Shown here: piece by piece, positions 32,360 through 41,261 of the stretch | How the letters are laid out: every line of letters starts with the position of its first letter | Position numbering within the stretch: position 1 is the stretch's first letter | Assembly (NCBI GenBank): GCA_902619265.1 | Contig: CACNDL010000003.1 | Location: 575-64,574, forward strand | Source of the DNA: an uncultured SAR86 cluster bacterium | GTDB taxonomy: Bacteria > Pseudomonadota > Gammaproteobacteria > Magnimaribacterales > TMED112 | Reading direction: 5' to 3' | Length of the DNA: 64,000 bases | The notes under the pieces: generated by a model | What the model was told of the DNA's origin: nothing | Database searches by the model: none | What the model saw: the letters and a program-made list of their open reading frames with translations, nothing else | Program-made: the position numbers and the translations under genes

Positions 32360-32431
32360 AACAGATTTTTAATATTTTATCTAAAGTTCTGGTTATTACA
32401 TTATTGAACATAAAAATAATAAACAATTATT

Positions 32432-32986
32432 TTAAAAATAATGCCTTCTAAACCAGAAAGTCATGATAATTTTTTCACCACTTTTAACTTTTAAACCGCT
32501 ATGCAAGCTACCTGGGTTTATATGATCTGTGTTATTTATGCAATTTTCAAATAAGCAAATACTACCCTTAACAGCATTAATTTTAATATTTAATTTATCA
32601 AAAAATGTTTCTCCTCCTAAACATTCAGAAAGATATAAAATAGCTGTATAAATTCTTTGATTATTTTCACTTGGGTTAATGAACCCATCAAAATGAGGTT
32701 TATACTCTTCATTTTTTTTGTATTTTGTAAAAACTACCGGTTCACAATTTTTTGGATCTAAATTAATTATTTCTGAAATCTTAAGAATTATTTTTTTTAG
32801 ATCTTTATCTTCATTATCAAGAATTTTTGATTTACTCGTTCTATCAGGATTTATAACATTTTCGTTATTATCAACAACATATGAGCGAACAAGATCAGCA
32901 TTATACAATTCAATCAATTTGTCACAAAAGTCGTTTGATATAAATTTTTTTAAAGTCTGAATTTTAGGATTTTTGTTTATTAACAT
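32432..32986 (-). CDS. 2-oxoglutarate/Fe(II)-dependent oxygenase, prolyl 4-hydroxylase-like
   Basis: HxD facial-triad candidate (PHFDGF), distal His (GSLHSG) and a Lys/Arg in a beta strand (GEKIIMTFWFR). 184 aa. Divergent from the lasso cluster. Confidence 0.65.
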   Translation of the reverse strand: MLINKNPKIQTLKKFISNDFCDKLIELYNADLVRSYVVDNNENVINPDRTSKSKILDNEDKDLKKIILKISEIINLDPKNCEPVVFTKYKKNEEYKPHFDGFINPSENNQRIYTAILYLSECLGGETFFDKLNIKINAVKGSICLFENCINNTDHINPGSLHSGLKVKSGEKIIMTFWFRRHYF

Positions 32987-33046
32987 TTATTATATTCTAA
33001 TCATTTTTCTAAAATCATTTTATGTTGGAGAGTCTTATTAAAGTCA

Positions 33047-33075
33047 TTGATGTTGAAAGATATTATTTTCATAAT
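33047..33075 (+). promoter_or_regulatory. Putative promoter of the lasso cluster (TTGATG-N17-CATAAT), with the -10 ending 5 nt before the ATG at 33081
   Basis: ttgatg 33047-33052, cataat 33070-33075, ATG 33081. Located in the 94-nt divergent spacer. Confidence 0.3.
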
Positions 33076-33080
33076 GAATT

Positions 33081-34232
33081 ATGCATTTAAATGTTTACAC
33101 CGACATAGTACATCAGATTTTTTTTAGTAAATTAGAGAAAACATTATCTATACTTAAGAATCTTAGCTTAATTGATAAAAAAGCATTTTTAAGATTTATA
33201 TCTTTTTCAAGAATTGAAGATCTATTTATAAATAAAATAGGTTTTGAAAACATAGAATCAATTTTTGGAAATGAAGAGGCTTTGTGGTTAAAAAATAATT
33301 CTATTAAAAGAGCTATAAGAACAGCAGAGAACAAAAGTTTTGCCAAGAAAATTTCTAAGGAACTCAAAAAAAGAAATATAGATCATGTCTTTTTAAAAGG
33401 GATAAATATGCATGAACATTTCTTTCATAATAATTTGATAAGGCCTTTGTCAGATTTTGATATATTAGTTGATAAAAAAAATCTCTGTGAACTTTTGAAG
33501 ATATGCAAAAAACATAATTTTGATACGTCTTTATGGGATTCAATTGATATCAATGAATTAGAAATTTATAAGAACCCCTCACTTAAACATAAAAATGATC
33601 TTGCCTATATAGATATTCATACTGAATTGAAGACTTCAATATTTGTAGACTCACATAGCTACAAAAAATTTGGTCAAGACTTACTAAGAAATGCAAAAAT
33701 TAATAATTCCAATATATGTTCAAGGGAAGAAACATTTTTGCATTGTCTTTTTCATGGAACTATTCAGAGCAACTATAATGTGGGGCCTATATTTATCTTA
33801 GATTTAATTAGTATGATAGAAAGTGACGATATAAATTGGGATCTAATTAATAAAAATGTTGAAAAATACAAACTAAAAAAAGAATTCAATGAAGTAATGT
33901 TCTATTTATCAAGCTCAATGAATGTGTCAAATAAAATTTTTAAAAGCAGTCCAGATAAAAGTTTAAATTTCGAAGATTTAAAAAATATTTTTATGACAAT
34001 TCCTAAAAATACTTCCCTTTTTGCTTTAAGAGATATCAAGGACCTTAAAATCCTAATAGAAAAAGTTTTTTATAAAAAATACATATTCCAGCATAATCAG
34101 CAAAAAATGTATTTTAAATATTTTTTTGAAAATCTACTAAGGTTATTTAAAAACCATGTTTTACAGGCTATTTCTGATAATTATGGCAATAGCATTTCAA
34201 AAAAAAGATATAAATTGTTAAAAGAAAAATAG
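33081..34232 (+). CDS. Nucleotidyltransferase of the uncharacterised NTP_transf_5 (PF14907-like) family, a lasso-cluster-associated tailoring candidate
   Basis: Core LKKRNIDHVFLKGINMHEHFF..IRPLSDFDILVDKKN..LLKICKKHNF matches the K-G...R.xSDxDxLV signature of this family. 383 aa. Confidence 0.6.
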   Translation: MHLNVYTDIVHQIFFSKLEKTLSILKNLSLIDKKAFLRFISFSRIEDLFINKIGFENIESIFGNEEALWLKNNSIKRAIRTAENKSFAKKISKELKKRNIDHVFLKGINMHEHFFHNNLIRPLSDFDILVDKKNLCELLKICKKHNFDTSLWDSIDINELEIYKNPSLKHKNDLAYIDIHTELKTSIFVDSHSYKKFGQDLLRNAKINNSNICSREETFLHCLFHGTIQSNYNVGPIFILDLISMIESDDINWDLINKNVEKYKLKKEFNEVMFYLSSSMNVSNKIFKSSPDKSLNFEDLKNIFMTIPKNTSLFALRDIKDLKILIEKVFYKKYIFQHNQQKMYFKYFFENLLRLFKNHVLQAISDNYGNSISKKRYKLLKEK

Positions 34233-34235
34233 CAC

Positions 34236-34943
34236 ATGTATACGATAAATAATCTCTCAAAATATTTTTATGATCAGTCTTGGCGATCGTTTTTCAAAAA
34301 TAATAAAACTGTTGCTCTAAATAATTTAAATTTTGATTTTAATGATGGTGACAGTATTGGAGTTATAGGTAAAAATGGGTCAGGAAAATCGACTTTGCTA
34401 AAAATAATTGGAAATATTCTATTAGCTGATGAAGCTAGTTTTTCATTCGATACAAACAAGTCAAATACGTCTTACATATCGGGAAATGAAAGATCTTTTT
34501 TTTGGCGACTATCTGTTAGAGAAAATTTAGAGTTCTTTTCATCAATGTATGGCATAAATAAAGAAGTTGCTGATGCTCAAATTCTGAAGATTGCAAATGA
34601 TCTAAATTTTGATGAATTTCTTGATATCAAATTCGTTTCTCTTTCTTCTGGCTATAAGAAAAAAATATCATTTGCGAGGGCGTTGCTGAAAAATCCTGAT
34701 ATTTTTTTATTTGATGAAATTACAAATTCGCTAGATTTTTCGTCAAAAAACAAAATTAAAGAATTGCTAACATTCTTTAAGAAGAATCAATCAAAAAAAA
34801 TTCTATTTTGGGCCAGTCACGATACAAGTGAAATTATTGATATATGTAACAAAGTAATAATTTTAGAAAAAGGTACAGTAGCAAGAGTAATATATAAGGG
34901 AGAGGATGATTTTAATGAAAAATTTTTTAATCAGTACCTTTAA
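34236..34943 (+). CDS. ABC transporter ATP-binding protein
   Basis: Walker A GKNGSGKST, signature LSSGYKKK, Walker B IFLFDE, H-loop SHD. Confidence 0.9.
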   Translation: MYTINNLSKYFYDQSWRSFFKNNKTVALNNLNFDFNDGDSIGVIGKNGSGKSTLLKIIGNILLADEASFSFDTNKSNTSYISGNERSFFWRLSVRENLEFFSSMYGINKEVADAQILKIANDLNFDEFLDIKFVSLSSGYKKKISFARALLKNPDIFLFDEITNSLDFSSKNKIKELLTFFKKNQSKKILFWASHDTSEIIDICNKVIILEKGTVARVIYKGEDDFNEKFFNQYL

Positions 34944-35742
34944 TAGATCTTTAGCTTTTTTCAAAAAAGATCTAATCAATCAAACAAGTTATAGATTAAG
35001 TTTTTTCTTGAATATTCTTTCAATTTTCATTGCAGTGTATGTTTTCTTTATATTTTCAAAATTATTTGAGGGATCAAATAACTATTTAGAAAAATTTGGA
35101 AATAATTACTTCTTTTTTTTAATTATTGGTATATCTATATCAGACGTAGTTTTGCGCATTTCATCAGTAATAAATACTGAAGTTAGAAATTATCAATTAA
35201 CTGGTATGTTTGAAGAAATTATTAACCTCAAAGCTCCAATAATTGAGCTTCTATCTTATAGTTTTATCTATCCAATAGTTTTTTCAATATTTAGATTACT
35301 TATCTTTTTATTTTTTGCTGTATTTTTTTTTGATCTTTCATTAGATTTTACGAATATAGGTTTAATAATGTTTACAATATCTCTTACAGTTATTTCTTGT
35401 ATAGGGATTGCATATATAGCAGGAGCTTACGCTTTAGCTTTTAAGAAAGGGAATCCTTTATCAGCCATAAATCAACTTTCTGTGATGATTTTAGGAGGTG
35501 TTTTTTTTCCTACAACGATACTGCCTGATTGGTTAAATTATGTCTCTCAATTTATTCCGATTACTCATGCTTTAGAAATAATTAGATATTTGTTTATAAC
35601 GGACAACATTCTAAACTCTGAAGTTATCAAACATTTTTATTCACTAGCTTTATTATCTTTGTGCTTTTTATCAATCGGTTTAATTGTTTGCCACTTTGCA
35701 ATTAAAAATGGTAAAAAAAATGGTACTCTAACAATTTATTAA
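34906..35742 (+). CDS. ABC-2 type transporter permease
   Basis: Six hydrophobic segments in a 278-aa protein immediately after, and overlapping, the ATPase gene. Alternative start at ATG 34915. Confidence 0.7.
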   Translation: MILMKNFLISTFNRSLAFFKKDLINQTSYRLSFFLNILSIFIAVYVFFIFSKLFEGSNNYLEKFGNNYFFFLIIGISISDVVLRISSVINTEVRNYQLTGMFEEIINLKAPIIELLSYSFIYPIVFSIFRLLIFLFFAVFFFDLSLDFTNIGLIMFTISLTVISCIGIAYIAGAYALAFKKGNPLSAINQLSVMILGGVFFPTTILPDWLNYVSQFIPITHALEIIRYLFITDNILNSEVIKHFYSLALLSLCFLSIGLIVCHFAIKNGKKNGTLTIY

Positions 35743-35751
35743 GCTATAACT

Positions 35752-36015
35752 TTGACATTGAAATTCACAGTACAAAAAGAAATATTTGATATTGATCTTG
35801 AAGATAAAAAAATTTTGTTAGATCCCAACTCTGGCAGGTACATAGAATTAAATTCAACCGCAGCTAAAATTTTTGAGTTTGTTAAAAATGACGAAAAAAC
35901 ATTAGAGCAAATAACAAACTTTATTTGTGAAAATTATGATATATCTTCTGAAGAAGCATCTAAGGAAATTGATAGCCTTCTAAAAAAATCTCCAAATATT
36001 TTTTCATGCTCTTAA
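35752..36015 (+). CDS. PqqD-like RiPP recognition element (lasso B1 protein)
   Basis: 87 aa. The pattern KKILLDPNSGRYIELNSTAAKIFEFVKNDEKTLEQITNFICENYDISSEEASKEIDSLLKK is the canonical PqqD/RRE layout. TTG start. Confidence 0.75.
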   Translation: MTLKFTVQKEIFDIDLEDKKILLDPNSGRYIELNSTAAKIFEFVKNDEKTLEQITNFICENYDISSEEASKEIDSLLKKSPNIFSCS

Positions 36016-36389
36016 AAAAAGCTAATTCGCTAGTAATTTTATCTTTTAGTCTTTTTTATCTTTTGAAAACACGGTTGGATTTTATTTTTTTAACTTTTAA
36101 TAAACTAATTAAGCCTGTCAAATTAAGAAAGAGTAATTGGACTAAATCGGATATGAGTAAATTTTGTAGATTTGTGGAAAAGCTCTCGGGCATTATCGGA
36201 ATAAAGTCATGTTTTGTTAAGTCAATAACAAAAAGAAATTTTCTTTTGCATAAGGGGTATGAATGTGAAATGTACATTGGAGTGTCTTTAAAAGATAAGT
36301 TTAAATCTCATTCTTGGTTAGTTTCAGAAGAAATTAATTGCTTTGAGTCTCCAGACAAAAACATGAAAGTATTAAAGGTAGTTAAATAA
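36006..36389 (+). CDS. Lasso-peptide leader peptidase (B2, transglutaminase-like Cys protease)
   Basis: 127 aa. Catalytic Cys context IKSCFVKSITKRNFLLHKGYECEMYIGV, then His in KSHSWLV, as in lasso B2/McjB C-terminal domains. 10-nt overlap with B1. Confidence 0.75.
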   Translation: MLLKKANSLVILSFSLFYLLKTRLDFIFLTFNKLIKPVKLRKSNWTKSDMSKFCRFVEKLSGIIGIKSCFVKSITKRNFLLHKGYECEMYIGVSLKDKFKSHSWLVSEEINCFESPDKNMKVLKVVK

Positions 36390-36390
36390 T

Positions 36391-38241
36391 ATGGCTGGAT
36401 TCACTGGAGCAATAAACTTTAAATCTAATGGTTTTACTCAGGCACAAAAAAATAAAATTTTAAAGAATTTCCAAGCCTTTCATAAAACTTATGATCTTAT
36501 ACAAGACGATAACATTTTTATTTGTACTTATTCAAAGAATAATTGCAGTTTGAGTTTAAAGAAGAATAAAAGCCTAACCCTATTTTATGGAAGAATAGAT
36601 AACATCACCGAGTTAAGAAAATTGCTTTCTATTGATGAAAAATATAATTGTGCTGAAATAATCGACAAAGGTCTTGAAGACATCGGAGATGAATTTATAG
36701 AACGAATTAAAGGTGCCTTTGTTTTTTGGTCATTGGACCTTAAATCAAAATCGTTTCTTGCTGTTAAAGATCATATGGGTCAGAAGCCTCTTTTTTATAG
36801 TTATGAGGATTCATTACTATTATTTTCAACAGACATAAAACAAGTAGTTGACTTAAATGCTTCAAAATTAAAACTGAATAAGAAAAGAGTATTATTCTTT
36901 TTAACTTATTTATGTGGCCCAGTTGGTCAAACCTTTTTCGAAAAAATTTTTAGGCTTCCTGCAAGAAAAAAATTATATGTTTCCAAAAAAGGATGTAGAG
37001 ATCAAAAATATTTACATTTTTTAAATACGAATAAAATTGAATCACAAAATGAAACAATCAAAAAGTTTGAAGAAGCACTTGAAAATGCAATTACTTCCAT
37101 ACCATTTAAAAATAAGGTTGGATCTAAATTAAGTGGCGGACTAGATTCCAGTTCAATTTCTGGCTTTCTGCTTTCAAAAAACTCTAAAGAAAAAGTTAAA
37201 TTATTTTCTGGGGTATATGATCTTAATTTTAAGGAACTCAATGATGTAAATGAATACGAATACATCAAATCATTTGAAAAGTATCATGATTGTGAAACTA
37301 ATTATGTAAGGTTTAATAAATTCGAAGAGTTAAATCCTTTTTTATATGGGCTAAATGACTATGAGCCAAATTTTATAATGAGCAGATACTTTGATATTAA
37401 ATTCTTGGTGGAGGCAAAAAAAAACAACATTGAAAAAATATTCGATGGTTTTGACGGAGACTCTGTAATTTCATACGGTAAGGGATATCTCCTTGATCTT
37501 GGTAAAAATTTAAGATTAAAACAATTATTTAATGAAAAGAAATTGCTTGAGAGCAAAGGATTCATAAAGAAAATTCATCCAATAAAATTTTTTTATAGGT
37601 ATGTGATAGTTCCAAATGTTCCAAGTTTTTTTATAAATTTTATTAATAATCTTAGAGGACATAAAAAAACACAACTTGTAAATTACAACCTATTTACAAA
37701 AGCTGTAAGAAACAAATACAAATTTAAAGACATAAGAAAAGAAGTCGGAGACCATGATTCTAATTATATCGACTCACAAGAAGTGCATAGGAGAGTTCTA
37801 GAGTGGCCGTTATGGGAGTATATTTTAGATAGCGTACATGAAGATAGTCAAAAACTAGATATTGAAGAAGTGTACCCATTTCTAAACAGAGATGTTATGG
37901 AAATAGCTTTAAGCTCTGCTCCTACATTAAAGTTGAATAGAGGTACAACAAGGTATTTGCTAAGAGAATCTGCAAAAAAAGTATTGCCTAGGGAAATTTA
38001 TAAAAGATCCAGTAAATCAAATTTAGCTCCTCCAATTGATAAATATTTTTCAATAATGAAGAAGAATAAAGATTATTTAGACTTAATTATTGGAGATGAC
38101 TCTCCATTAAATGGGCTCGTTGACAAACATAAAATTTTACAAATGTATGAGATTGACAGTAAAAAAGATAATCAATACTTAACTTGTTTAATTAATCTAG
38201 CGATCTGGATGAAAAAATTCGGGTTTAAATGGCAAAAATAA
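36391..38241 (+). CDS. Lasso-peptide cyclase (C protein, asparagine synthetase B homologue)
   Basis: 616 aa, PP-loop SKLSGGLDSS. The N-terminus MAGFTG lacks the Cys2 glutaminase nucleophile of true AsnB (compare purF MCGIVG in this window). Starts 1 nt after the B2 stop. Confidence 0.85.
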   Translation: MAGFTGAINFKSNGFTQAQKNKILKNFQAFHKTYDLIQDDNIFICTYSKNNCSLSLKKNKSLTLFYGRIDNITELRKLLSIDEKYNCAEIIDKGLEDIGDEFIERIKGAFVFWSLDLKSKSFLAVKDHMGQKPLFYSYEDSLLLFSTDIKQVVDLNASKLKLNKKRVLFFLTYLCGPVGQTFFEKIFRLPARKKLYVSKKGCRDQKYLHFLNTNKIESQNETIKKFEEALENAITSIPFKNKVGSKLSGGLDSSSISGFLLSKNSKEKVKLFSGVYDLNFKELNDVNEYEYIKSFEKYHDCETNYVRFNKFEELNPFLYGLNDYEPNFIMSRYFDIKFLVEAKKNNIEKIFDGFDGDSVISYGKGYLLDLGKNLRLKQLFNEKKLLESKGFIKKIHPIKFFYRYVIVPNVPSFFINFINNLRGHKKTQLVNYNLFTKAVRNKYKFKDIRKEVGDHDSNYIDSQEVHRRVLEWPLWEYILDSVHEDSQKLDIEEVYPFLNRDVMEIALSSAPTLKLNRGTTRYLLRESAKKVLPREIYKRSSKSNLAPPIDKYFSIMKKNKDYLDLIIGDDSPLNGLVDKHKILQMYEIDSKKDNQYLTCLINLAIWMKKFGFKWQK

Positions 38242-38284
38242 GTATCTATTGCCAGATGCGCTTATTTATTGTACATTTCTCTTT

Positions 38285-38431
38285 ATGAATTCAAAAGACA
38301 AGAAAACCTGGACCACGCCTGAAGTTAAAGATCTAGGCGATGCCAAGGATATAATCAAAGGTTTCTCTCCTGAAGACCCAAAAGTTCCAGGTGGGGGTGA
38401 TGGGGCTCTTGCTGGTGCCTCAGACGCATAA
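38285..38431 (+). CDS. Lasso-peptide precursor (A peptide), 48 aa: MNSKDKKTWTTPEVKDLGDAKDIIKGFSPEDPKVPGGGDGALAGASDA
   Basis: Small ORF between the cyclase and the kinase. The leader carries W-x-x-P-x-V-x3-G with the spacing of RRE-binding lasso leaders. ATG 38285 is preferred over the TTG 38249 of the ORF track. Confidence 0.65.
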   Translation: MNSKDKKTWTTPEVKDLGDAKDIIKGFSPEDPKVPGGGDGALAGASDA

Positions 38432-38440
38432 CTTAAAACT

Positions 38441-39319
38441 TTGCTCTATAAAATTTATAACTTAATTGTTAGATCCGACCTAACTATTGATGATTTTTAT
38501 GATGTTGTTTCAGTAAACTCAAATACATTCGATGCGTCTGTTAAAAATGAAAAATTTGATTTTTTAAAAATTAGACCAAAAAAAAATTGCAATTTTGATC
38601 TTTACTCCTCAAAAAATTACACAGAAATTTACAAAAAGTCTATGGGCAAATTTAGGATAAGAAATGGAAAAGAGGTCTCCTACGAACCCTATAAAAATAT
38701 AAAACTACCAAATTTAGCAGCATATTTATTTTCAAATGTTTTTGCTTACCTTTTATATCAAAGAGGACATATCGTTCTTCATGCAAGTGCTATTGAAATT
38801 GATCAAAAAGCTTATTTTTTTTCTGGAAGGAGCGGTGTTGGGAAATCTAGTTTATTAAACAAACTCTTATCTACAGGAAATCATTTAACAGAGGATACAT
38901 GTTGTTTTGAGAAAACTAATGAAGGATTCAGTATTTTACCCTCATTGCCTTATCTAAAGTTAGGTGATGCAGATATTATTGATTTTGAACATAACAATTA
39001 CAGCACTCAATTAGATAAAAGAAATAGAAATATAATATCTTTCAAAAGAACGTCGCAAATTAAAAGGAATAAATTTACATTAGGCTTTTTTTTAAAATAT
39101 GGAAAAAAATTAAGAATTGAAAGAATTGACGATACTGAAGCTTTGAAAAACTTTTTATCAAATATGTTTGCATCCTATCCACATGAAAATTTTTTAAATG
39201 ATCAACAAGATAATCTTTTAAAAATGAGTGACATTATTAACAAAGGTATTTTTTATAATTTGTATAGAGATGAGACCTCAGACTTTGATTTGGAAGCTGT
39301 ACTAAAAATTCTTAACTAA
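38441..39319 (+). CDS. HPr kinase/phosphorylase C-terminal-domain-like kinase (lasso precursor Ser kinase candidate)
   Basis: LHASAIEIDQKAYFFSGRSGVGKSSLLNKLL reproduces the HprK P-loop context (H..a.....G.l..G.SG.GKS). 292 aa. TTG start 9 nt after the precursor stop. Confidence 0.7.
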   Translation: MLYKIYNLIVRSDLTIDDFYDVVSVNSNTFDASVKNEKFDFLKIRPKKNCNFDLYSSKNYTEIYKKSMGKFRIRNGKEVSYEPYKNIKLPNLAAYLFSNVFAYLLYQRGHIVLHASAIEIDQKAYFFSGRSGVGKSSLLNKLLSTGNHLTEDTCCFEKTNEGFSILPSLPYLKLGDADIIDFEHNNYSTQLDKRNRNIISFKRTSQIKRNKFTLGFFLKYGKKLRIERIDDTEALKNFLSNMFASYPHENFLNDQQDNLLKMSDIINKGIFYNLYRDETSDFDLEAVLKILN

Positions 39320-41261
39320 TCTCAATTAATTCAATAAGAGCTCTAAGTGATTGATCAATTTCAGCATCTAAAATGAATTCATCCTCAGAAATATAATCTT
39401 CATACTCACTAAAGTTTGCAAATTCTTCTTTTCCAGAGAGGGTTCTGCCTAAATTGACTAATTCAAGAGTATTATTTTTATCTGATTCTTTAATGGATAT
39501 TCTTTCTTCAAGGTTAAGGCTTAAAAATAAGTTGGAATCTCTTTGTTTTTTGATTTCATCAATTTTATTAAAGTATTCTGAATCATTAATTCTTTTTTGA
39601 AATGATTTTTGAAGTAAATTTGAATCAAAATTTTTAAAAGATACAAAGTAGGCTTCGTCTATATCATTTGGCTTAATTGCATTATCGTATTCACCTTCAC
39701 CTACTATTTCAGCACTAACTAATGAAGGAATTACTAAATTAGGTTCAACTCCAAATAGTTGTGTCGGCAAACCAGTAACTCTGTAATAAAGTGAATCAGT
39801 TAATTTAATTTGACCATTACCAGTTGTTTTAAACCTCTGTACACTGCCTTTTCCAAAGGTTGTTTGACCAATAATAATTCCACGATTGTAATCTTGCATT
39901 GCCCCTGCAAATATTTCAGAAGCAGATGCAGAGTATCTATTTACTAAGACAATGAGTGGCTTTTCCCAAACTTTTGTTGATCGCCAAGAATGCAATATCT
40001 CTACATCTTTTGATGGGTTCTTTACTTGAACTGTAGGACCGTAATTAATAAAAAGTCTAGTGAGAGAATCAGCTTCATGCAGATATCCTCCACCATTATT
40101 CCTTAAATCAAGAACAATTCCTTCAATATCTTGGTAATTGAATTCTCTCAAAAGCTTTTGAACATCTGATGAAGCTGTTTTGCAAACATATACATTTCGT
40201 CTTAAGCATTCATAGTCGCTGTAAAACGAAGGTAATTTTATATAACCTAACTTTCTTTTATTAAACTCAATAACTTCAGATGATGCATCACTGTTTTCAA
40301 GGGTAACTGTGCCTCTTGTAAGGTTGACTATTTCTTTTCCCTGATCGTTTTCTATTTCTAATCTAACCGTAGTACCTTCATCTCCCCTAATTAATTCAAC
40401 GATATCATCAAGACGCCAACCTATAACATTTCTAAGTCTTCCTCTTTCACCTTGTCCAACTTTGATAATCTTGTCGCCAACTTTTATTTTTTTAGATTGT
40501 ATTGCTGGCCCACCAGGCATGAGTTCTTGAATTTTTGCTTTTTCTTCTTCGTAGCTTAGTATTGCGCCAATGCCTTCGAAAGAGAGGTTCATCCTTAAAT
40601 TCCAGTTTTCGAGATCACGTTCTGAAAAATAAGACGCATGTGGATCCAACATAGATAAAAAATTATTTGCTAGGATCCCGAACCTATCTGATTCTCTAAT
40701 TTTTGAAATCGAAGACAAACGGCTTGTATAAGTCTTTTTTAATTCACTTTTTGCTTCAAAATTATTTTTATCCTCAAGGAGTAAATTGATTAACTCATTT
40801 TTAACTATTCTTCTTTGATAATCCTGTTTTTCTTGTTTATTCTGAAAAAAGCTATCCCTCGGTTTTAGGTTGATTTGCTCATTTTTATTGTAGTTGAATT
40901 CATAATTGTTTAAGAAATGTCTTCTTGTCTTTAGAGATTCTTCATACCTTTGATAGTAAAGATCAATCACTTCTTTTAGTTGCTCATAGTTTGATTTAAT
41001 CTTATTGTTCGAGTCTTTTCTAAATTTATTTAAATCTTCCTGTAAAAATGTATTTTTTTGCTTATCTAATTTCGTAATAAATTGTTCAAGAAATGTATCT
41101 TTCTCGATATCTTTACGTTCAAAATTTAGAATGGATGATTTTTCAAACTCAGATACTATGGAATTGAATTCAGCTTCGTAATTTATCTGTTCTTCTTGCT
41201 CAAATGAACAGCTAAAAAGAAATAATGCAAAAATTAAACTAAATAACGGTTTTAATGCCAT
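39312..41261 (-). CDS. S41 carboxy-terminal processing (tail-specific) protease lipoprotein with PDZ domain
   Basis: Lipobox LFLFSCS. PDZ region (GDKIIKVG). Catalytic Ser in NRYSASASEIFAGA and Lys in TFGKGSVQ. Confidence 0.85.
   Translation of the reverse strand: MALKPLFSLIFALFLFSCSFEQEEQINYEAEFNSIVSEFEKSSILNFERKDIEKDTFLEQFITKLDKQKNTFLQEDLNKFRKDSNNKIKSNYEQLKEVIDLYYQRYEESLKTRRHFLNNYEFNYNKNEQINLKPRDSFFQNKQEKQDYQRRIVKNELINLLLEDKNNFEAKSELKKTYTSRLSSISKIRESDRFGILANNFLSMLDPHASYFSERDLENWNLRMNLSFEGIGAILSYEEEKAKIQELMPGGPAIQSKKIKVGDKIIKVGQGERGRLRNVIGWRLDDIVELIRGDEGTTVRLEIENDQGKEIVNLTRGTVTLENSDASSEVIEFNKRKLGYIKLPSFYSDYECLRRNVYVCKTASSDVQKLLREFNYQDIEGIVLDLRNNGGGYLHEADSLTRLFINYGPTVQVKNPSKDVEILHSWRSTKVWEKPLIVLVNRYSASASEIFAGAMQDYNRGIIIGQTTFGKGSVQRFKTTGNGQIKLTDSLYYRVTGLPTQLFGVEPNLVIPSLVSAEIVGEGEYDNAIKPNDIDEAYFVSFKNFDSNLLQKSFQKRINDSEYFNKIDEIKKQRDSNLFLSLNLEERISIKESDKNNTLELVNLGRTLSGKEEFANFSEYEDYISEDEFILDAEIDQSLRALIELIEIS

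Follow-up and report, generated by a model that had tools for sequence, protein, structure and literature searches.

A gene located immediately downstream of a lasso precursor gene in the window (the whole stretch of 64,000 nucleotides that was analyzed) encodes what is, judging from its sequence and modeled structure, a predicted peptide kinase of a lasso-peptide gene cluster, with an HprK/PEPCK-like fold. We propose, with moderate confidence, that this kinase phosphorylates Ser46 of the precursor (core Ser21) and that it belongs to the type acting on a C-terminal Ser, yet tolerates an extension of two residues beyond the acceptor.

The enzyme would be an HprK-like serine kinase that uses ATP to modify the lasso precursor whose gene lies directly upstream, and its target would be the hydroxyl group of Ser46 within a conserved C-terminal Ser-Asp-x motif. 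It would descend from the classical C-terminal-Ser kinases and now accept a Ser followed by two further residues; as a speculation, the carboxylate of Asp47 may replace the terminal carboxylate recognized by the classical enzymes. The most likely substrate is the linear precursor with its leader still attached, modified in the cytoplasm before B2 and C act, with the RRE protein B1 probably presenting the precursor to the kinase; the same holds for all characterized relatives. The PF14907 protein N may add a sugar or a nucleotide to the phosphate afterwards, while the leader would be removed by B2, the core cyclized by C, and the product exported by the ABC-2 pump.

Gene cluster, kinase fold and catalytic motif

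The kinase gene is the last one of a complete lasso cluster with the order N-ABC-ABC-B1-B2-C-A-K (N-D-D-B1-B2-C-A-K; Table 1), and the order C-A-K was the same in all related loci. A spacer of 9 nt separates the TAA of the precursor gene (38429-38431) from the TTG of the kinase gene at 38441, and the coordinates of the ORF and of the stop codon agree with the first-pass annotation, in which this TTG start had been described. TTG starts located 7-11 nt 3' of the precursor stop were seen in at least 13 related loci, and the N-terminus MLYKIYNL was kept in homologues, with the variants MLYRLFNL and MTYILYNY; the TTG start was therefore taken as real. The conservation of both the spacer and the start codon between A and K also bears out the tight precursor-kinase coupling that had been suggested from the window alone. 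Moreover, 23 residues were invariant across 34 clusters of kinase homologues sharing 27-90% identity, so the kinase gene is not a chance ORF.

Table 1. Positions in the window of the lasso cluster genes, of selected precursor features and of neighboring genes.
Feature	Positions	Strand	Remarks
Divergent ORF	32432..32986	-	184 aa; inside the island; earlier read as P4H-like 2OG/Fe(II) oxygenase
N	33081..34232	+	PF14907 nucleotidyltransferase, homologue class of PsmN
ABC genes	34236..35742	+	ABC ATPase, 34236-34943; ABC-2 permease, 34906-35742
B1	35752..36015	+	PqqD-like RRE
B2	36006..36389	+	Leader peptidase (transglutaminase-like)
C	36391..38241	+	Lasso macrolactam cyclase (Asn-synthase-like)
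A	38285-38431	+	Lasso precursor, 48 aa, MNSKDKKTWTTPEVKDLGDAKDIIKGFSPEDPKVPGGGDGALAGASDA
Core of A	38360-38428	+	Residues 26-48, from G26 on, GFSPEDPKVPGGGDGALAGASDA
Ser28 codon	38366..38368	+	Core position 3; alternative candidate acceptor (cf. BsfK, LppK)
Ser46-Asp47 codons	38420..38425	+	Core S21-D22
K	38441..39319	+	Predicted HprK/PEPCK-fold lasso precursor kinase, 292 aa
prc	39312-41261	-	S41 tail-specific protease

Searches with the single kinase sequence (Pfam, NCBIfam and phmmer against PDB) returned sub-threshold matches to P-loop proteins only, such as RsgA, ABC and HprK, with scores far under the cut-offs (Hpr_kinase_C, E 0.016; HprK_rel_A, 5.9e-5), and profiles and a structure model were therefore needed for the assignment. 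In a PDB search with a profile of 13 diverse lasso-linked kinases, the top match was HprK/P from L. casei (E 4.5e-8). The AF2 model of the kinase, built with 21 homologues (pLDDT 93.2, pTM 0.91), was matched by Foldseek to PEP carboxykinases (PEPCK) and to HprK/P with a probability of 1.0. The kinase thus has the same fold class and P-loop region as HprK/P, but the similarity to the latter does not extend beyond approximately 60 residues surrounding the P-loop, both the N-terminal domain and the gene context are different, and there is no link to HPr. The cut-offs for genuine HprK/P were not reached (TIGR00679, 14 bits vs. 240; PF07475, 15.2 bits vs. 33.3).

The key residues of the kinase are H114, the P-loop G129-R-S-G-V-G-K135-S136, and the pair E151-D152, to be compared with the His-Lys-Asp-Asp catalytic set of PadeK-type lasso kinases. 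The P-loop-region string quoted in the first-pass annotation as well conserved (HASAIEIDQKAYFFSGRSGVGKSS) was found with its first letter at residue 114, and five of its P-loop residues were invariant. Nine residues (H114, S116, A117, G129, G132, G134, K135, S136 and D152) did not vary among the 13 lasso-linked kinases, including BsfK, and in the alignment the invariant residues line up with H148, G163, G166, G168, K169, S170 and D186 of BsfK, all of them validated by mutation (PMC10368454). The second Asp of BsfK, D187, falls on T153 of the window kinase in an ungapped alignment. This apparent loss of the second catalytic Asp was re-read as a probable one-residue shift, since relatives keep the T-E-D motif. 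Indeed, T-E-D is also present in loci L094 (with one extra residue before the motif) and L091, whose precursors end in Ser, and for this reason E151-D152 would be best read as the canonical Asp-Asp pair with its first Asp changed to Glu.

The same deviation, be it a shifted second Asp or a pair changed to Glu-Asp, could be taken to indicate a different chemistry, in which the kinase would act on a mobile hydroxyl (core position 3 or 15/16) with Ser21 serving N or another enzyme, would have another substrate, or would be a non-catalytic partner; the function of N is, besides, unproven in any proteobacterial system. We regard these possibilities as quite unlikely, given that the Glu-Asp pair is shared with relatives of Ser-ending precursors and that the kinase and precursor genes are coupled in a conserved way, which favors the precursor as the substrate.

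Two further features were observed at this motif. In the window kinase, two cysteines that are almost invariant come after the Glu-Asp pair (TEDTCCF; 38891-38905, kinase residues 151-155). SED occupies the same motif in L011, a non-lasso locus of an uncultured proteobacterium, where the HprK-like kinase (L011:9557-10600) seems, by eye, to be fused to an N-terminal PqqD-type-like region, and where no lasso cyclase was detected within 10 kb of the kinase.

Candidate acceptor hydroxyls in the precursor family

The leader of the precursor comprises residues 1-25, ends in IIK, and carries the anchors W9, P12, V14, G18 and I24, which are in register as W-17, P-14, V-12, G-8 and I-2. A longer precursor of 60 aa, starting from the TTG at 38249, was unsupported, as the conservation among relatives begins only at the ATG. 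The predicted cleavage site before Gly1, with Ile at -2, agrees with the leader feature of the Bsf type. Distant loci showed the same leader (...P-E-[VI]-x-[DE]-L-G-[DK]-A-K-[DE]-I-I-K) followed by different cores, namely SVFVSG[ST]GDTFPGTE[DN]TLASS, NVFISGSGDTFPGTEDTLESS, GIPGGDKEVGTADGEFLPLQVS and GLFLNKEVGGADTLFDDDQNPISVPD, the first three of which are Ser-ended. If the residue following IIK is numbered 1, all four cores have an acidic residue at position 7, 8 or 9, and this speaks for a cut behind IIK in the window precursor too. The window core is itself off the rule for ring formation: Asp and Glu are absent at positions 7-9, and Asp occurs only at positions 6, 14 and 22, the three of them being invariant acidic residues (27/27 cores). 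A candidate precursor (…KKAWIKPELVVYGDVEKLTTELPVPLPQPPSGGSSSIP) in a lasso-kinase locus from Chloroflexia (L006:9427-9576) also has a predicted core in which no Asp or Glu ring acceptor follows position 1; the last residue of this core is Pro.

Counting from G26, the only serines of the window core are S28 (core 3) and S46 (core 21), and the C-terminus reads ...G-A-S46-D47-A48; these residues and positions, already reported in the first-pass annotation, agree with the translation. For the comparison across the family, precursors were gathered from contigs carrying kinase homologues, from a search with the precursor itself, and from a metagenome scan with the precursor alignment. The resulting 39 precursors comprised 27 distinct cores, each of 23 residues. 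Positions 1, 2, 6, 7, 8, 11, 13, 14 and 17 were invariant (G, F, D, P, K, G, G, D and L, respectively), as were Ser at position 21 and Asp at position 22, while the last position was occupied by A in 16 cores, L in 5, V in 4 and S in 2. Ser21, corresponding to Ser46 of the precursor, was the sole invariant hydroxyl among the 27 cores, although its invariance alone is no proof of an acceptor role, since about 13 core positions are invariant. Only two cores are Ser-ended (both in Ser-Asp-Ser) and the other 25 are not; the C-terminal Ser typical of PadeK-type precursors is likewise lacking in the window precursor, which ends in Ser-Asp-Ala. Together with the fold, the motif and the cluster, these figures uphold the earlier description of an HprK-like lasso kinase that lacks a C-terminal Ser substrate.

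The other serine of the window core has a clear precedent. BsfK, from Bradymonas sediminis (Duan et al. 2023), phosphorylates Ser3 of the core, a residue of the ring, accepts Thr3 and requires an Ile(-2) context, its precursor BsfA carrying Ile at -2 and ending in Asp, and the B1 protein of the Bsf system strongly stimulates the reaction (PMC10368454). LppK, the kinase of linear polyphosphorylated peptides (Nat Commun 2026), also modifies Ser3 (PMC13381572). The statement in the first-pass annotation that characterized lasso kinases target the C-terminal Ser is consequently outdated. The window precursor shares Ile(-2), Gly1, Ser3, an acidic C-terminal region and the lack of a C-terminal Ser with the Bsf precursor, which counts against Ser46, and the likeness of its junction DIIK/GFS to AIIR/GTS of BsfA (the slash marks the predicted cleavage site) made Ser28 the initial candidate site. 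A kinase of the BsfK/LppK kind, aided by B1, would thus phosphorylate core position 3, which lies near the leader junction and is Ser28 in the window and Thr in most relatives. Position 3 is occupied by Ser or Thr in 20/27 cores (T 18, S 2), but by Ala, Gly or Asp in the remaining seven (A 3, G 3, D 1), and the catalytic motif of the kinases paired with the latter is intact. Although the window core has Ser3, the conserved Ser/Thr3 of the Bsf type is therefore not a feature of the 27 cores. In addition, Phe or Pro is found at position 3 in the outgroup cores with the same leader. On balance, phosphorylation at position 3 appears unlikely, although Ser28 is a serious rival to Ser46.

The occurrence of further hydroxyls bears on the idea of two modified sites, or of a kinase acting on a mobile hydroxyl. 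None of the cores has fewer than two hydroxyl residues, and Ser/Thr3 and Ser15/16 (38402-38407 in the window) are complementary: Ser15 or Ser16 was present in every core without Ser/Thr3, and Ser15 in none of those with it. However, this pattern comes down to 2 independent pairs only (p 0.5) and carries no statistical weight for that reason. A second modified hydroxyl at position 3 or 15/16 is possible, in addition to the Ser46 that we favor.

Descent of the kinase and comparison with characterized systems

A maximum-likelihood tree was built with 49 kinases, comprising the family, the hits from 400 Pseudomonadota genomes (with 20-kb contexts), the Sphingomonad and Chloroflexia loci, and BsfK; PadeK, ThcoK, SyanK, PsmK and LppK are not among them, and the deep nodes are affected by composition bias and long branches. 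The kinases of S-D-x precursors formed one clade (support 100/99), nested in a larger clade (99/91) composed only of clusters with the IIK leader (...AK[DE]IIK). The earlier branches of the latter, L094, L090, and then L091 with L095, are of Ser-ending types, with cores that end in ...ASS, ...ESS and ...QVS. The Ala3 group was the first to branch off inside the S-D-x clade, a further point against position 3 as the acceptor. The window kinase belongs with the lasso-associated HprK-like kinases and neither with HprK/P proper nor with unrelated P-loop proteins, so the placement that would have refuted the first-pass annotation was not obtained.

No specific kinship with BsfK was apparent, which also argues against Ser28. 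BsfK was placed on a separate long branch, away from the S-D-x clade, and in BLASTP the two kinases shared 33% identity over 64 residues (40 bits). Forcing BsfK as sister of the S-D-x clade cost 20.5 lnL (AU p 0.056), so this placement is disfavored although formally not rejected. An orthology between the window kinase and BsfK was rejected on the grounds of similarity and tree position, the AU test being borderline.

In the sample of 400 Pseudomonadota genomes, a precursor could be identified for 14 kinase loci, and in 12 of them it ends in Ser; these precursors were picked by a leader regular expression, unvalidated, that gave none for 6 loci. A precursor search in the 1.5-kb flanks of the sampled kinase loci had returned almost nothing, and 20-kb windows were used instead; a scan of genome contigs with the close-family alignment recovered only 7 loci, its patterns being too specific. 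In the precursors that do not end in Ser (...GTSI, ...GSTP and ...TPTV), a Ser or Thr is always among the four C-terminal residues, as it is in congener precursors ending in ...VVSP and ...IGST. The simplest history, as read from these sequences, would be that of a C-terminal-Ser kinase whose substrate gained two residues beyond the acceptor.

On the linear precursor, the classical kinases PadeK, ThcoK, SyanK and PsmK specifically recognize the Ser at the C-terminus, and PsmN adds a hexose to the phosphoserine of pseudomycoidin (reviews PMC9266682, PMC8498205). As in these systems (paeninodin, pseudomycoidin, Sphingobium), the kinase of the window is an HprK-like P-loop enzyme with a His...GxxGxGKS...acidic-Asp motif, its lasso cluster is of the split-B kind and includes a PF14907 N gene, and the nearest outgroups of the window kinase in the tree serve Ser-ending precursors. 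Unlike them, its precursor has Ile(-2) and its only invariant Ser is followed by Asp-x, instead of Thr(-2) and a C-terminal Ser, and the catalytic pair of the kinase is Glu-Asp, a comparison for which the Sphingomonad loci L007 and L008 were used as stand-ins. As the classical kinases are reported to recognize the C-terminal Ser specifically (PMC8498205), Ser46 as a target would demand a changed pocket. With BsfK, the window kinase shares its setting as an HprK-like kinase in a lasso cluster, the presence of an N gene, and the H-G-G-G-K-S-D motif, but not the conservation of position 3 in the substrate family. With LppK it has in common an HprK-like kinase accompanied by a discrete RRE and an NTP-transferase, and a leader-bearing RiPP precursor, LppK being moreover a precedent for a site that is not C-terminal; in contrast to the LPP clusters, which have no cyclase or B2 and a signal-peptidase-like protease, the window has both B2 and C (the LPP clusters were compared by description). 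Since a C-terminal Ser, a conserved Ser/Thr3 and a relationship to BsfK are all absent, the window kinase would be related to lasso precursor kinases but a member of neither characterized subtype (PadeK type or Bsf type).

RiPP and lasso peptide kinases serve as tailoring tools, for which two site rules have been described so far, the last Ser or core Ser3. On the basis of the sequences compared here, the S-D-x kinases appear to be a variant not described before. With less assurance than we assign to Ser46 itself, and as a tentative though reasonable proposal, they may represent a marine clade with a third regiochemistry, in which the acceptor is the antepenultimate Ser of an invariant Ser-Asp-x-COOH terminus, the Asp side chain mimics the terminal carboxylate, and the core is unable to form a canonical ring of 7-9 residues and perhaps has a second modified hydroxyl. 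If true, a clade accepting a Ser plus two residues would widen the substrate rules of these enzymes, and Ser-Asp-x would be a motif for testing and engineering. For genome mining, the absence of a C-terminal Ser would be no ground for dismissing kinase-type lasso clusters. The family is common in marine metagenomes, where it is carried on a variable island in genomes of approximately 1 Mb, and a phosphorylated, possibly glycosylated product may matter ecologically in such abundant, streamlined plankton.

Insertion site and neighboring protease

The lasso cluster and the 184-aa divergent ORF lie on an island of about 7 kb (~32360-39311), with a GC content of 26.8% vs. 33-35% in the flanks, inserted between an xthA-like gene and prc. 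The prc gene is convergent with the kinase gene, overlaps its end by 8 nt, and adjoins it in 19/19 family loci that reach far enough. This S41 C-terminal processing protease could thus be thought to act before the kinase, removing Asp47-Ala48 and leaving Ser46 as the true C-terminal Ser for a kinase of the classical type. The requirement of classical kinases for a C-terminal Ser would be satisfied in that case, and the last core residue is indeed variable (A/L/V/S), with the length being fixed. However, three congeners without the cluster (L099-L101) show what represents an empty site: there, the xthA-like gene lies directly next to prc, with which a sir2-mazG-acyltransferase-prc block ends. 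The adjacency is therefore explained by the insertion site, and a functional link between kinase and protease was dropped as evidence after this synteny test. Furthermore, the hydrophobic, lipoprotein-type signal at the N-terminus of the protease makes it probably extracytoplasmic, while known kinases work in the cytoplasm, on a precursor that still carries its leader; a gene for a cytoplasmic carboxypeptidase is absent from the island, and the invariance of Asp22 suggests that this residue is kept for a function and not trimmed away. Prior trimming is thus very improbable. Among the three options raised in the first-pass annotation, that of a specificity for an internal Ser is the best supported, the family comparison favoring Ser46 over Ser28, while the removal of Asp-Ala as a first step lost the support that the protease seemed to lend it.

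The site was found occupied in other ways as well. In a fourth congener (L097) another lasso cluster, with the core GAGTIDGVRKEVGTPTDSAFADSVVSP, takes this position, and in a fifth one (L098) a lasso cluster with a core ending in ...PIGST is located 36 kb from prc. The site looks like a hot spot for the exchange of lasso clusters in these ~1 Mb genomes. In a relative of the Gly3 type, a PF13640 2OG-Fe(II) oxygenase gene (L015:1637-2197) is situated between N and the ABC genes, within the cluster, which suggests that the divergent ORF of the window belongs to the lasso pathway.
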